Source: a bacterium (lineage in GTDB: Bacteria; Patescibacteriota; Minisyncoccia; UBA6257; Brennerbacteraceae). From it: a DNA stretch of 31,128 nucleotides. A program made the position numbers and the translations under genes. This document shows, piece by piece, positions 14,911 through 19,732 of the stretch. The DNA lies in contig DAIDAW010000001.1 of NCBI GenBank assembly GCA_027310425.1, positions 1-31,128 of the forward strand, written 5' to 3'. How positions within the stretch are numbered: the stretch's first letter is position 1; each line of letters begins with the position of its first letter. A model generated the notes under the pieces. That model saw only the letters and a program-made list of their open reading frames with translations, searched no databases and was not told where the DNA came from.

Positions 14911-15138
14911 TTACGGCAAAGATAAGAATAGGACCATGAGAATGCTTGTTCCTAAAATAACAGATCCTGTAAGGCCTATTCCGAAGACATCTTTGGCGAT
15001 TTGCCGACTCCATCCCCATTCTCGACGTTCGGTAATGAACTGAAGCGCAAGCGCGCCTACAAACATTATAAACAATGAAGCGAAGAACGGGATGATCAGT
15101 AGCATCAGAACGATGGCTGCTGAATCTCTGGTATACAT
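14911..15138 (-). CDS. Small membrane protein with two TM helices (75 aa)
   Basis: AAGGAGG Shine-Dalgarno about 5 nt upstream of the ATG, two hydrophobic segments, own terminator. Confidence 0.7.
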   Translation of the reverse strand: MYTRDSAAIVLMLLIIPFFASLFIMFVGALALQFITERREWGWSRQIAKDVFGIGLTGSVILGTSILMVLFLSLP

Positions 15139-15262: not shown

Positions 15263-15532
15263 ATGAAAAAAATGGCAATCAGTGCGTTGGTTCTGCGCGG
15301 CGAGTCATGCGTCGAGGAAGGTGACATTGCATTGCTCGTACTCATGAGTCTTGACGGTGAACGTCCGGTTGTGCACGTGAGTGAATCCGTTATTGGATTC
15401 GAATCTGTGAAAGCACTCTTCGAGGGGAAGGATCCTGATGACAAAATTCAGATAACGCTTGAGGCGGAATATCCCGAAGATCCCGCGGATTGTTGTTCCA
15501 GCAGCATCAAGCCAATCGCACTATTCATCTGA
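15263..15532 (+). CDS. Small acidic hypothetical protein (89 aa)
   Basis: AGGAGG at 15249-15254, ATG at 15263, terminator directly after the stop. Confidence 0.65.
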   Translation: MKKMAISALVLRGESCVEEGDIALLVLMSLDGERPVVHVSESVIGFESVKALFEGKDPDDKIQITLEAEYPEDPADCCSSSIKPIALFI

Positions 15533-15534
15533 CA

Positions 15535-15558
15535 GAAAACCGCCGTATGGCGGTTTTC
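15535..15558 (+). terminator. Intrinsic terminator
   Basis: GAAAACCGCC-GTAT-GGCGGTTTTC followed by ACTTTTT. Confidence 0.8.
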
Positions 15559-15582
15559 ACTTTTTCCTACATATGCGATGCC

Positions 15583-15611
15583 TTGTAATTATATAGATTA
15601 TATGGTATAAT
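15583..15611 (+). promoter_or_regulatory. Promoter of candidate ncRNA-1
   Basis: TTGTAA (15583-15588), 17 bp, TG-G-TATAAT (-10 at 15606-15611). Confidence 0.7.
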
Positions 15612-15617
15612 ATAACT

Positions 15618-15739
15618 ATACGGTGAGGAGGCAAGGAGAAAACGGCGGCTATGAGCCGCGGACGCCATTGGGCGCAATAAAAATCCTCCCCTCCTCACCA
15701 TTCTAAATATAGAGGCGTTGCCATAAGCGGCGCCTTTTT
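15618..15739 (+). ncRNA. Candidate structured small RNA-1 (~120 nt), unknown class
   Basis: Ends pair: GGTGAGGAGG (15622-15631) with CCTCCTCACC (15690-15699), extended by GGAG/CTCC after a CAA bulge. A-rich internal loop, two apical hairpins, own promoter and terminator. Confidence 0.6.
15713..15739 (+). terminator. Terminator of ncRNA-1
   Basis: AGGCGTTGC-CATAA-GCGGCGCCT-TTTT; two G-U pairs favour the plus strand. Confidence 0.7.
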
Positions 15740-15750
15740 ATTGCACTCAC

Positions 15751-15778
15751 TTGACTTTTCTAGAATTAGTGCTATAAT
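15751..15778 (+). promoter_or_regulatory. Promoter of candidate ncRNA-2
   Basis: TTGACT (15751-15756), 16 bp, TG-C-TATAAT (-10 at 15773-15778). Confidence 0.8.
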
Positions 15779-15783
15779 ATACC

Positions 15784-16172
15784 TATCGTTCTTTCGATAG
15801 TCGGAAGGTTCTGAACAGATTATGTACGTAGTTTGTTCGGAGCCCTCCGGCACACCTTTTTTCCGGAGAGCAAATTCCGCTTCCCGGTGAAGACCGGGAA
15901 CTTATTGATAACGGGCCAGCGCATTTTCCATTCGCACAATCAGGTGCGCGCGCTGAATCTCCTAAGGCGTTTTCTGTGATTCGGTCGCTCCGAACACGAA
16001 ACTCTTCGCCTTTCCGTTATCGATCAATTTTTCGCGCGAATTCCGGAAATCCGCGCAAGGGAAAGTTGGGAGAACTTTCCAAGACCTGTGCCGCCAAGCC
16101 TTATGGCGCGGCGGCACAGGGGCAATCTGTTCTTTATACTATATATCGCCCAGCAATTGCTGGGCGTTTTTT
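15784..16172 (+). ncRNA. Candidate large structured RNA-2 (~390 nt), unknown class
   Basis: 23-bp 5' hairpin (15800-15851, one mismatch, five G-U pairs); TTCCCGGT-GAAG-ACCGGGAA hairpin; 11-bp long-range helix 15904-15914/16014-16024; hairpins at ~16062-16082 and 16085-16120; strong promoter and terminator; no credible ORF. Confidence 0.65.
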
Positions 16173-16491
16173 ATTTGCCAAACCGTGACAATCAATGGTA
16201 TATTTACCTTGGCAACAGGTTGCGCAAGCGCATGGTGCTCCTGGCAGCTTCCTTCGCTGCCAACTCCTTTCGTCTACTTGCTCAATGTTCTGCGTTTGCG
16301 CGAGCCGAGCTTTGCCTGTTGCCAGTTCTTTTTCGTCCGATTGGACGCTTATATTAAAAGGCGCGAGCTGATGCCCGCGCCTTTTCCCGTTTTTATAAAA
16401 AGGGGCCGCCATTGCGCGGCCCCATACGATTCTGTGCAAAGAACTGGTGTTCTGCGCCAGAGTGAGCTGAGGCACCCTGGCGCAGAACACC
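16140..16491 (-). ncRNA. Candidate large structured RNA-3 (~350 nt), unknown class
   Basis: 19-bp 5' hairpin (16446-16491); 10-bp long-range helices 16438-16447/16322-16331 and 16315-16324/16210-16219 enclosing several GC-rich hairpins; G-U pairs and A-rich loops favour the minus strand. Confidence 0.6.
16147..16172. terminator. Hairpin terminator shared by converging ncRNA-2 and ncRNA-3
   Basis: CGCCCAGC-AATT-GCTGGGCG followed by T6 on the plus strand; only an AT-rich tail on the minus strand, so weaker in that direction. Confidence 0.7.
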
Positions 16492-16494
16492 GGC

Positions 16495-16522
16495 ATCGTA
16501 GCACGGCAAGGATTTTTTGCAA
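16495..16522 (-). promoter_or_regulatory. Promoter of candidate ncRNA-3
   Basis: Minus strand TTGCAA (16522-16517), 16 bp, TG-C-TACGAT (-10 at 16500-16495). Confidence 0.55.
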
Positions 16523-16525
16523 TCG

Positions 16526-19500
16526 TCAAAGCGATGCGCTATTTTGTGCGCGCGGCGTGCCCAAAATCTGATTTTGGCCCGCGTCAAGACCATTGATGGT
16601 CGTGCCATTATTCGTTTGCCAGTTCGCAGCGAGGTTCCCCGGCGCATGCGCGTCAACGCGTTCCATGCTTGCGTTTGTTGCGTTATCTCCGGCAAACCAG
16701 CCGGCTGTCGCATCGACTTCATCAACAGTGTTGTCATGCGCATCAACAAGAAGCAGGCGTTCGCCGTTGTTGTTCAGCGCGCCGGCATATATCAAATCAG
16801 CAGGAATATCGGAAATGGTCGTATCATTCGTGCGTTCAAGCAGGAAATAGCCGTGCGTGTCGATAGATCCGGTAAGCGCGATATCGAGCGTTGCAGACGC
16901 ATTCGTGAGATGCCAGCCGGAAAGATCAACAGGGCTCTCCGAAGCATTGTACAGTTCCATCCATTCGTCATACGCAGATGTTTGCGTTCCCATCCACGCG
17001 ATTTCGTTCATGACAACCGATGAACCTGAGATCGGTTGCGGTTCAGAAGTCGGTTGCGGAGATGGGCTTGGCAACGCAAGCGGCGAATATACGGGCGAGA
17101 AATGCCACTGACGCGCATCGATCTGGCGCAGGTACAGGCCGGAACTCGGGCCTGCGTCGTATACGGACATGCTCGTTGTCAGATAATCGTTTGATGTGAT
17201 GAGCGCCGTGTCTTTGGGAATGCTCCAAATCGGCAGACGCACGATCCAAGAACTTTGTTCCGGGAACTGTTTTTGCGCGAGTTCGTTCGGGTTGATTGCC
17301 GTTGTGCTGAATCCGGAAATCGAGCATACGCCGTTGATGGGATAGCGAAATCCCGGTCTGCCGGAAAACGACGAGTTCCAGTCGCACGTGTAGTATTGCA
17401 CCGGCACGAGATTATTCTGGAAATTTTCCAGAAATCCCTCGGCGCCGATTGTGATGTCATAGTTATAGATGAAATCAGCAGTGCTGTTCAGATGAAAGCG
17501 TAATTCGTAACCGTCCGTGCTCCACGAATCCGGAGTTTGAGCAAGCGGCAGCGAATACAGGAATTCAATGCTCCATGCGCCGTTTGGTTCCGGACCCCAG
17601 CGCAGATTTTGCAGATTGGGAATCGGATGCGGTGTGGGATAAACCATCTGAGGAGACGAGGCACTCAGGAATGAGCCGAAATAACGCGTTTGATCGGGAA
17701 TAGGCGTGTCATTGGCGTAGAGCGGCCAGTATGCAAGCGCAAGAAAATCATTTGTGCCGATTTCCCTGCCGAGTGTTTGTTCGAAATGGCTGCGCGTGAT
17801 GCCTGAAGGCGCGTCTGCCTGAAGCCAATTGCTCGTGGAAAGCCGCAGCTGCGTGGGATGAACCACGATGTGCTTTGGGAATTCAGCGCTCTGGCTGTCA
17901 AATGTTCCTTGCCATTCCCAGGTTGTTTCCGAAGGACCATAGATGGGGTTGATCGTGTCTACGAATATACCGGTTTGTCTGGGAATGCTGTAGCGCGGCA
18001 TAATGGTATTGCCGCCTTCTGGTTTTGATTTTGCGGTGAGCGCCAGATCCGTATTCCACGCGGCGACAATCGTGTGGTAATCGTTGTTCGGCAAAAACGT
18101 TTGCGCGTCGAACTGAATCGTGAAAATGCCGCCCGCATCCGATGCCATGCTCGTGTCAAAATACCACGCGACATTGGTGAAGAAATCATTGCGGGATTGC
18201 TGAATCCACGGCGTTGGAGCAGGAGCCGGAGAGGGTGTCGGGAGAATGGTCGGCTCGATCGTCGGCGTAGGCTCAATCGTCGGTTTTGAGGAAGGAGCCG
18301 GTGTTGGTTCGGGCGAGAGGGTCGGTTCGGGAATCGGCGTTGGGCTTGAATTGGAAAATGCGAATGGCGCAGGATTGGTTGGAGGAACATTCGGCGCCTG
18401 TACATTGAGGAATTGCAAAAATTGCTGCGGAGTCGGGGCAGGAGCGTCGGTCTCAAGGAAAAAATTCATGAGCGGAAGCGCTGCGTTTATGTTGCGGATT
18501 TCGTCTTGCGTTGGCGGATTCGCATGTTCCTTTGCAGGATTCGGCAGAATCAGAAAAAGCGGCGGAGAGCTTGGGATTTGACTTGATGGTGTTGTTTCCA
18601 GCGCTTGCTGGTTCGCATTGTAGACAAATACCCGGGCGAATGTGTCCTGCAACGATTGCTGCTGTGTTTGAATCCATTGCAAGATCGAATCAAGCCAGGA
18701 TTGATGCTGTTGGATTTGGTGTTGTTGGGCTTCTTGGAGAAATAATGCAAGTACGCCAGCGCCATGTTGTACTGCTTTCGGGCCAAGACGAGACCAGTAA
18801 TCCTTGTTGATTAGAATGTTGTCTATTGTTGTATCAAAAATATTTCTAGTAATAAGTCCTCCATTTAAAGATTTATTCAATACCAAATGATAATCTCCGT
18901 CGTTATCCTTATCTATCCCATAATAGAATTCACCAATTTTTTCATACATAAGTGGCTCGGGCAGATTATATCCGCTTTGTATGCCGATTGTATCTTTGCT
19001 GTAAAAACCTTTGTTTGAGTAATTCGCAATCGAATCGAAATACTGATTCAAGTTTGCAAATACAACCGGTTGCTTGCTTTGCATATACGTTGCGAACTGC
19101 GTATCGGGATTGGAGAGATTGAATTGCGCTGTCCATTGTTCATACGGGCTGCCTGTTGCATGGCCGTTGTTGCGTGTATGGTCAGGCACGGATGCGTCTT
19201 CGATGAGATGCAGGATATGGCCCAGGGCAAACATCGCTTTTTCTTTGTTCGCGTTTGTCCAGTAGTCAAGCGCGGCATTCCAGGAATAATCGCTTTCCGT
19301 GCTGATCGCGAGCTTTTTCTGCTGGATTGAATCAAGAATTGACGCGATGAGCCCCGCGACTTTGTATGTCGGTTCGTTTTGTTTCGCGCTGTCCTGCGCC
19401 CAGAGCTTTGACGATTCATGCGATGTGCCGATATTCAGTTCCGCGCCAGTGCGCGTGTCGTACGTATAGCCCCGGTTGTATATGGGATCGTAGAAATGAT

Positions 19501-19732
19501 GCAGCCAGCGCGGAGAATCGTCTTCCCTGCGCGAGCCATCGATCAAATACGCTCCCAATTCTTTTGGAAATTGTTCTGCATGTGTTTGGTTATAGAGTTT
19601 GATGATTTCTTGAGTCAAAAACGCATGCGTTTCATAGTCATACGCATGCGTTTGCGAGATATTCCAAAATGTTGTTGCGAAAACAATGAGTGCTGGGATC
19701 AACGAAAGCTTCACAAGCTTTCTATTTTCCAT
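16526..19732 (-). CDS. Secreted multidomain protein (1068 aa): Zn-dependent phospholipase C/S1-P1 nuclease-like N-domain, Pro-rich stalk, unknown middle domain, C-terminal lamin-tail domain
   Basis: Signal peptide then AYDYETHAFLT, WLHHFYDP, LGHILHLIEDASVPDH, SPYE (tri-zinc helical hydrolase pattern); PEPT/PSP repeats; VVMNEIAWMGT..DEWMELYN..LNNNGE is lamin-tail-like. Confidence 0.8.
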   Translation of the reverse strand: MENRKLVKLSLIPALIVFATTFWNISQTHAYDYETHAFLTQEIIKLYNQTHAEQFPKELGAYLIDGSRREDDSPRWLHHFYDPIYNRGYTYDTRTGAELNIGTSHESSKLWAQDSAKQNEPTYKVAGLIASILDSIQQKKLAISTESDYSWNAALDYWTNANKEKAMFALGHILHLIEDASVPDHTRNNGHATGSPYEQWTAQFNLSNPDTQFATYMQSKQPVVFANLNQYFDSIANYSNKGFYSKDTIGIQSGYNLPEPLMYEKIGEFYYGIDKDNDGDYHLVLNKSLNGGLITRNIFDTTIDNILINKDYWSRLGPKAVQHGAGVLALFLQEAQQHQIQQHQSWLDSILQWIQTQQQSLQDTFARVFVYNANQQALETTPSSQIPSSPPLFLILPNPAKEHANPPTQDEIRNINAALPLMNFFLETDAPAPTPQQFLQFLNVQAPNVPPTNPAPFAFSNSSPTPIPEPTLSPEPTPAPSSKPTIEPTPTIEPTILPTPSPAPAPTPWIQQSRNDFFTNVAWYFDTSMASDAGGIFTIQFDAQTFLPNNDYHTIVAAWNTDLALTAKSKPEGGNTIMPRYSIPRQTGIFVDTINPIYGPSETTWEWQGTFDSQSAEFPKHIVVHPTQLRLSTSNWLQADAPSGITRSHFEQTLGREIGTNDFLALAYWPLYANDTPIPDQTRYFGSFLSASSPQMVYPTPHPIPNLQNLRWGPEPNGAWSIEFLYSLPLAQTPDSWSTDGYELRFHLNSTADFIYNYDITIGAEGFLENFQNNLVPVQYYTCDWNSSFSGRPGFRYPINGVCSISGFSTTAINPNELAQKQFPEQSSWIVRLPIWSIPKDTALITSNDYLTTSMSVYDAGPSSGLYLRQIDARQWHFSPVYSPLALPSPSPQPTSEPQPISGSSVVMNEIAWMGTQTSAYDEWMELYNASESPVDLSGWHLTNASATLDIALTGSIDTHGYFLLERTNDTTISDIPADLIYAGALNNNGERLLLVDAHDNTVDEVDATAGWFAGDNATNASMERVDAHAPGNLAANWQTNNGTTINGLDAGQNQILGTPRAQNSASL

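Follow-up and report, generated by a model that had tools for sequence, protein, structure and literature searches.

Streptococcal csRNAs and the RNAs RsaE/RoxS are about 100-130 nt long, start at their own promoter and end at an intrinsic terminator; they do not need Hfq, and they hold a C-rich motif exposed in loops or single strands. Other compact bacterial RNAs with which a small structured transcript can be compared include 6S RNA, in which long helices flank a large central bubble to make a rod of about 150-200 nt, and the purine-riboswitch-like aptamers, in which a helix P1 closes two hairpins through short junction strands and a terminator follows a few nucleotides past P1. In the ultra-small bacteria of the CPR/Patescibacteria, regulatory RNAs are almost unexplored, and our literature search on the topic found no study of them.

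Here we describe RNA-1, a structured element in an intergenic gap of a genome from the family Brennerbacteraceae (hereafter G000; 547,969 bp in 84 contigs, 91% complete and 87% coding). The organism is of CPR/Parcubacteria type, and its relatives have genomes of 0.4-1.3 Mb. The window is the whole stretch of DNA that was analysed, 31,128 nt of contig C11, which also carries nusA, pnp and a NYN-domain gene. RNA-1 has, in silico, the generic features of a stand-alone sRNA gene: a promoter and a terminator of its own, an intergenic position and no credible open reading frame (ORF). We put at roughly 55% the probability that it is a genuine sRNA gene, non-coding, independently transcribed, about 125 nt long and private to its lineage.

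An intergenic unit with its own promoter and terminator

RNA-1 lies in a long gap that is bordered by an orphan ORF and a large convergent gene:

14911-15138, minus strand: orphan hydrophobic ORF of 75 aa, with the leader GAAGGAGG-N5-ATG
15263-15532, plus strand: orphan ORF of 89 aa upstream of RNA-1, with its own terminator at 15535-15558
15533-16525: the 993-nt gap that holds RNA-1, between the 89-aa ORF and the 1068-aa gene
16526-19732, minus strand: gene for a 1068-aa lamin-tail-domain protein, the other border of the gap

The 75-aa and 89-aa ORFs have zero matches in Pfam, PHROG and PADLOC, relatives of the 89-aa ORF were not found in the genomes of the family, and the proteins neighbouring RNA-1 gave no phage or defence-system matches. 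Because the 89-aa ORF terminates at its own terminator, RNA-1 is not its 3′ UTR, and because the next gene on the plus strand is more than 4.5 kb away, RNA-1 is not a leader either.

The complete unit, 15618-15742 on the plus strand (about 125 nt), consists of a three-way junction, a linker and a terminator behind a promoter, and its two transcription signals are:

15583-15611, plus strand: promoter of the TG-extended sigma-70 type, with -35 box TTGTAA at 15583-15588, a 17-nt spacer, TG at 15603-15604 and -10 box TATAAT at 15606-15611
15711-15742, plus strand: intrinsic terminator including its tail (hairpin to 15737), from folding and a terminator scan

The promoter agrees with the consensus at 10 of 12 positions and carries the TG extension in addition, which places the predicted transcription start near A15618. 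Only 28 matches of this quality exist on both strands of the 548-kb genome, and 20 of them are intergenic, yet intergenic DNA makes up just 13% of the genome. The -10 region, ATATGGTATAATATA, recurs letter-perfect upstream of two protein genes (C55:1451 and C15:8037), so the RNA-1 promoter is of the organism's own type.

The terminator was absent from the output of a simple scanner and was found by a separate custom scan together with folding. Its stem of 11 pairs includes 8 strong ones (GGCGUUGC/GCGGCGCC), the loop reads CAUAA and the tail is UUUUUAUU. Read on the minus strand, this stem would have A·C mismatches in place of its three G·U pairs and would lack the U-run; together these fix the orientation of RNA-1, which the core itself does not, as its stems are all Watson-Crick paired.

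The gap as a whole is rich in such signals. Three of the 28 strongest TG-extended promoter matches, at 15583, 15751 and 16175 and all on the plus strand, fall within its 993 nt, against about 0.05 expected, and downstream of each one lie a strongly folded segment and a terminator. One further segment, RNA-2 (15785-16175), has a z-score of -9.4, and a third unit (16210-16392) has a z-score of -5.5. At several other sites of G000, for example C2:5112-5150 and C23:2766-2806, an ATG stands only about 10-12 nt past the -10 box of a strong promoter, which suggests that leaderless mRNAs are frequent in this host.

A three-way junction closed by a GGAGG/CCUCC helix

For 15618-15739 the minimum-free-energy fold and the centroid fold are the same. 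From the 5′ end to the terminator, the elements of this fold are:

5′ end, plus strand: unpaired tail of 4 nt
15622-15631 with 15690-15699, plus strand: helix P1, GGUGAGGAGG with CCUCCUCACC, 10 Watson-Crick pairs
between P1 and P1b: 2x2 internal loop, CA/CC
15634-15637 with 15684-15687, plus strand: helix P1b, AGGA with UCCU
at the junction: A-rich strands, GAAAAC and CAAUAAAAA
15643-15661, plus strand: hairpin P2, GCGGCU/AGCCGC with loop AUG and an outer C-G pair
15663-15674, plus strand: hairpin P3, CGCC-AUUG-GGCG
15674-15683, plus strand: junction strand J3/1, GCAAUAAAAA
15700-15710, plus strand: AU-rich linker of 11 nt, AUUCUAAAUAU, with pairing probability of about 0, the longest accessible segment

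Together, P1 and P1b form a GGAGG/CCUCC helix of 10+4 bp that closes a Y-shaped three-way junction; the P1 arms were also recovered as an inverted repeat (I3). A first-pass annotation of this DNA had described a 14-bp closing stem with one bulge, and the number of pairs holds, whereas the supposed bulge is the CA/CC internal loop. Its two apical hairpins are P2 and P3, the A-rich strands do lie at the junction in the shared minimum-free-energy and centroid fold, and its general picture of a compact, stand-alone structured RNA is borne out in silico by promoter, fold and terminator. Pairing probabilities are about 0.9-1.0 in P1, at least 0.9 in P2 and P3, and 0.6-0.9 in P1b. The 3-nt loop of P2 is the AUG of a 9-codon ORF, to which we return below.

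The whole unit has a predicted folding energy of -58.2 kcal/mol (z = -6.0), and 0 of 200 shuffled sequences were as stable; lengthening it to 15750 brings the z-score to -6.8. The core without the terminator (15618-15710) folds at -42.0 kcal/mol, again with z = -6.0 and with 0 of 300 shuffles as stable. Among 93-nt windows of the host genome, a z-score of -6 or lower is reached by 0 of 150 genic and 3 of 146 intergenic ones, so that the core of RNA-1 belongs to the top 2% or so of intergenic windows in fold stability. By these folding models the structure is real and well beyond chance.

Two features of the fold bear on how the RNA might work. The motif CCUCC occurs in two adjacent copies, both of which are buried in the closing helix P1. 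GGAGG-containing inverted repeats are not over-represented in the genome (6 of 306, comparable to other 5-mers), and RNA-1 is thus not one of a class of SD/anti-SD (SD, Shine-Dalgarno) hairpins. Second, J3/1 is an exact 10-nt complement to the terminator tail UUUUUAUUGC at 15735-15744 (inverted repeat I2). These are the only two sites of the 10-mer in the window, where 0.15 would be expected, and 0 of 100 shuffles had two matches. Such exact complementarity could allow a pseudoknot or a capture of the 3′ tail.

A trans-acting RNA as the preferred reading

On the evidence of these signals and folds, transcription of RNA-1 would start at about 15618 from the strong promoter type of the host. The transcript would fold, nearly from its 5′ end, into the Y-shaped junction locked by the 14-bp GGAGG/CCUCC helix, and would end at the plus-strand-specific intrinsic terminator, with no downstream plus-strand gene to serve as a target in cis. 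The paired 5′ end, the terminator hairpin and the possible pairing of the U-tail with an A-rich strand would favour a long-lived RNA that acts in trans.

How such an RNA would act is far less certain. Neither Hfq nor CsrA (PF02599) was found in the 91%-complete G000, so any pairing by RNA-1 would be chaperone-free, and chaperone-free antisense pairing is the mode that we prefer, tentatively and with the odds against it. The seed could be the AU-rich linker, the junction strands or, once P1 opens, the pyrimidine-rich CCUCC tract, and the targets could be the purine-rich GGAGG leaders of the host's approximately 28 small-protein genes.

The genome offers RNA-1 no extended complement elsewhere, the longest matches being 12-13 nt at E-values of 1 or more. 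A duplex-energy scan of 523 start regions did not rise clearly above shuffled controls, and its best match (C16:4147-4494) contains a mere 8-nt complement to RNA-1. The missing extended complement counts against an sRNA gene, as do the lack of a homologue in the genomes searched, the burial of CCUCC in P1, the purely Watson-Crick stems of the core, which by themselves leave its strand unfixed, and the chance that the island around RNA-1 is an insertion, either young or in decay, that serves no function.

An orphan in a lineage-private island

No homologue of RNA-1 was found across the genomes of about 700 relatives, a collection of species-representative genomes, viral contigs and phage records, and its own genome holds no paralogue. 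BLAST searches with 15560-16430 against 60 relatives and with 15612-16175 against 400 genomes of the order returned promoter and terminator look-alikes only; the latter query and genomes yielded no homologue of RNA-2 either. With a covariance model (R1), built on the single RNA-1 sequence and its fold, we searched 150 genomes from the order and 150 from the class, as well as the family's 7 genomes under laxer filters. It detected no homologue; its best matches were 3′ halves of tRNAs with terminators, coding DNA and bare terminators. A GTDB-wide scan for the P1 arms retrieved at least 120 unrelated long hairpins or repeat elements, each of which scored about 22 bits or less with R1. Nor was RNA-1 found in a pattern search of viral contigs or by BLAST against phages, and a metagenome scan anchored on the 89-aa ORF gave 5 matches, all of them out of frame inside an unrelated gene.

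A few unrelated metagenome-assembled genomes (MAGs) hold several copies each of the probe GGTGAGGAGG-N45-75-CCTCCTCACC. Four copies are spaced about 1.2 kb apart in an Armatimonadota MAG (JAPLCQ010000069.1, 680-4429), and many more loci occur in the Alphaproteobacteria MAGs JBKQRV01 and CAVVLJ01. These multi-copy matches look like genome-specific palindromic repeats that are unrelated to RNA-1.

In the closest genus (G003, with a NusA 74% identical), the order pnp-NYN-nusA is kept and is followed by different, AT-rich DNA. Together with the lack of homologues, this places RNA-1 in an island that is private to the lineage and is made up of small orphan ORFs and of units with a promoter and a terminator.

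The same observations feed the alternative that survives best, although we consider it improbable: RNA-1 might be transcribed but functionless, either inserted recently or left over from a small-protein gene, of which the promoter, a GGAGG-type leader and the terminator would have been kept. The 5′ arm of RNA-1, GAGGAGGCA, is indeed similar to the AAGGAGGCA leaders of GGAGG-led small genes, every genome searched lacks the RNA, the closest genus has unrelated DNA after nusA, and the 75-aa and 89-aa ORFs that flank it are orphans as well. Against a relic speak the 87% coding density of the host, a z-score of -6 combined with three nested perfect stems, which is unlike decay, and the completeness of the unit from promoter to terminator, in which 125 nt are too few for a former ORF of 50-150 aa.

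If RNA-1 is a functional sRNA, it need not pair with other RNAs. As a decoy or scaffold, it could offer its A-rich junction and two GC hairpins to an RNA-binding protein or to an RNase. The rigid structure with its exposed A-rich junction and the failure to find an antisense target agree with this, and we rank protein binding at the junction nearly as likely as the antisense mode, which still leaves it doubtful: a partner is not identifiable, with CsrA, Hfq and Ro/TROVE not found in G000, and a repeated binding motif is absent.

CCUCC-bearing RNAs in a host that has lost the anti-Shine-Dalgarno

The leaders that RNA-1 might address belong to an unusual translation setting. Approximately 28 small, mostly membrane-like ORFs of the host have (G)AAAGGAGG 4-6 nt upstream of their ATG, one example being the 75-aa gene at 15138 with its GAAAGGAGG leader. 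The 3′ end of the 16S rRNA, which also has long insertions in this host, reads GGAUGGAAAAUUUCUUUA (G000:C12:4743-4779) against the bacterial consensus GGAUCACCUCCUUU, and the CCUCC core of the anti-SD is missing from it. The same core is absent from the 16S rRNA of 11 relatives of the order, and loss of the anti-SD in a subgroup of Parcubacteria has been published before (PMC9297842). The GGAGG-led small genes persist despite this 16S rRNA. Judging by the letters, AAAGGAG could pair with the 16S tail UUUCUUU by way of two G·U pairs.

A second RNA of the same genome, with relatives in two further genera, carries CCUCC in a loop:

G000:C77:12717-12850, plus strand: CCUCC-loop sRNA, with its own TG-extended promoter and terminator
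G003:C36:30011-30066, minus strand: relative of the CCUCC-loop sRNA
G005:C1:89285-89337, minus strand: relative of the CCUCC-loop sRNA

The loop of its 5′ hairpin reads UAUCCUCCUU, and the anti-SD-like UCCUCCUU is invariant in the three genera, while the stem shows compensatory changes between them (A-U to G·U to G-C at one pair, G-C to A-U at another). For the GGAGG-led small genes, the CCUCC-loop sRNA is a good candidate as regulator, and its conservation shows that CCUCC-bearing sRNAs are in use in this lineage. RNA-1 does not belong to its family, as a covariance model of the 5′ hairpin with the UCCUCCUU loop (R2) gave no match in 15618-15742 at E ≤ 10 with filters off.

RNA-1 and the CCUCC-loop sRNA might nevertheless work together in an RNA layer specific to this lineage, with GGAGG leaders as its targets while the ribosome itself lacks the anti-SD, an idea that we regard as a long shot. 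The tandem CCUCC of RNA-1 would then pair with the (G)AAAGGAGG leaders of the roughly 28 genes after opening or processing of P1, or else its GGAGG arm would be a decoy for the CCUCC-loop sRNA; either way, GGAGG and CCUCC motifs would serve riboregulation instead of ribosome recruitment.

Further structured RNAs were seen in G000. A non-coding unit of about 200 nt at C44:6950-7207 (minus strand) has a promoter with 11 of 12 consensus positions plus TG and no match in Rfam; its first element is a long hairpin, CCCUCCUCUU/AAGAGGAGGG, with AGGAGG behind it, the order of the arms being opposite to that in RNA-1. Near-identical copies of a promoter and a structured RNA of about 100 nt, GACAACAGGCAG.GGAGAUAUCCCGCAAGACCUGUCGAGG..., occur at G000:C77:24440-24594 and G000:C29:1-134 (both minus strand), also unmatched in Rfam, and may reflect the duplication of an ncRNA gene or a repeat in the assembly.

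Known families and the riboswitch layout

At gathering thresholds, Rfam matched nothing in the whole window but one tRNA elsewhere in it, and at E ≤ 10 it returned only noise on the RNA-1 region. A known riboswitch or cis-acting leader was thus rejected: Rfam has no match, and the nearest gene downstream on the same strand is more than 4.5 kb away.

The layout of RNA-1, with a terminator 11 nt past P1 and RNA-2 at most 45 nt downstream, is nonetheless that of a transcriptional riboswitch, and one may imagine an orphan element in which a ligand-binding junction and the terminator gate RNA-2, or a riboswitch-like sRNA that is simply terminated. We think this less likely still than the RNA layer just described, given that Rfam yields no family for it even at E ≤ 10, that inspection of folds and repeats shows no evident antiterminator alternative, that RNA-2 is served by a separate and stronger promoter (11 of 12 positions plus TG) and that a protein gene downstream is absent.

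Other families were considered and set aside. For the signal recognition particle (SRP), the RNA models RF00169 and RF01854 and the protein models PF02978 (Ffh M domain) and PF00448 (SRP54 GTPase) are all unmatched in G000. RF00169 and PF02978 are likewise unmatched in all 7 genomes of the family (G000-G006), which are 91-100% complete; the undetected SRP pathway may reflect a lineage-wide loss or extreme divergence. A bacterial Y RNA was rejected with Ro/TROVE (PF05731) unmatched in G000.

The 9-codon ORF and 6S-like or sponge readings

The first-pass annotation had pointed to a Shine-Dalgarno and a very short ORF inside the structure, and had offered a structurally gated micropeptide as one of three functions. 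The letters are as it gave them, AAGGAG at 15633-15638 and ATG...TAA at 15651-15680:

15651-15680, plus strand: 9-codon ORF, MSRGRHWAQ*, judged to be a chance ORF

Its own caution that so short an ORF may arise by chance proved apt. Complete ATG ORFs of at least 9 codons turned up in 27% of the core's dinucleotide shuffles, and 16% of intergenic windows had one too. The distance from AAGGAG to AUG is 12 nt, whereas the SD-led genes of the host keep a sharp 4-6 nt (among ORFs of at least 80 aa, GGAGG peaks 5 nt and AAGGAG 6 nt before the ATG). With this spacing and a 16S rRNA that has no CCUCC, it is not safe to read AAGGAG in RNA-1 as a hidden Shine-Dalgarno.

A small mRNA or dual-function RNA, whose fold would gate the start of the 9-aa peptide or of a 27-codon GTG frame at 15623, has the purine-rich AAGGAG 5′ of the AUG in its favour. 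We hold it to be very unlikely, as the ORF occurs at chance level, its spacing misses the 4-6-nt optimum by far, its AUG is held in a 3-nt hairpin loop and the anti-SD is missing from the 16S rRNA; the proposed micropeptide falls with it.

Weakest of all are the two remaining proposals of the annotation, a miniature 6S-like promoter mimic and a CsrA-type (CsrB/RsmZ-like) GGA sponge, which have in their favour the internal loop in the closing helix and the presence of several GGA triplets but which we consider scarcely credible: the 6S model RF00013, the check that the annotation itself had suggested, gives zero matches at E ≤ 10 in 15400-16400 and zero genome-wide, the core is of the wrong size and shape (an 85-nt three-way junction with two short hairpins, not a bubbled rod), a CsrA gene was not found, and two of the three GGA triplets lie mostly within P1/P1b, only the one in CGGAC (J2/3) being largely unpaired.

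Significance and comparison with known systems

RNA-1 is a clean candidate from a little-explored group: its 5′ end, fold and 3′ end are all predicted exactly, and its 0.55-Mb genome has little room for spare DNA. Taken alone it is an orphan of modest weight, to which the context adds value: the ribosomal anti-SD, Hfq, CsrA and apparently the SRP pathway are missing from the host, and GGAGG-led genes and an sRNA with a UCCUCCUU loop have been kept. If RNA-1 did take part in a circuit with the CCUCC-loop sRNA, it would help to explain what GGAGG does where the ribosome cannot read it.

Set beside known systems, RNA-1 resembles 6S RNA (RF00013) in its stability, its high degree of structure, its stand-alone nature and the long terminal helix that closes it, but it is half the size, forms a three-way junction and has no central bubble of the open-promoter-like kind. 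It shares with three-way-junction riboswitches a P1 helix with two hairpins, short junction strands and a nearby terminator, and differs from them in having no family match, no downstream coding gene and no evident antiterminator. The CCUCC-loop sRNA comes from the same genome and has the same promoter type, a similar length, a terminator and an AUCCUCC motif in common with RNA-1; it is, however, conserved in three genera and presents the motif in a hairpin loop, whereas RNA-1 is an orphan.

The csRNAs and RsaE/RoxS, covered here by the scan against all of Rfam, in which RNA-1 had no match, resemble RNA-1 in size, in having a promoter and terminator of their own and in a C/U-rich tract that can pair with ribosome-binding regions of the GGAGG type, although the CCUCC copies of RNA-1 are locked in a helix. 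The stand-alone bacterial sRNA is a kind already known, and RNA-1 is probably a further case of it.
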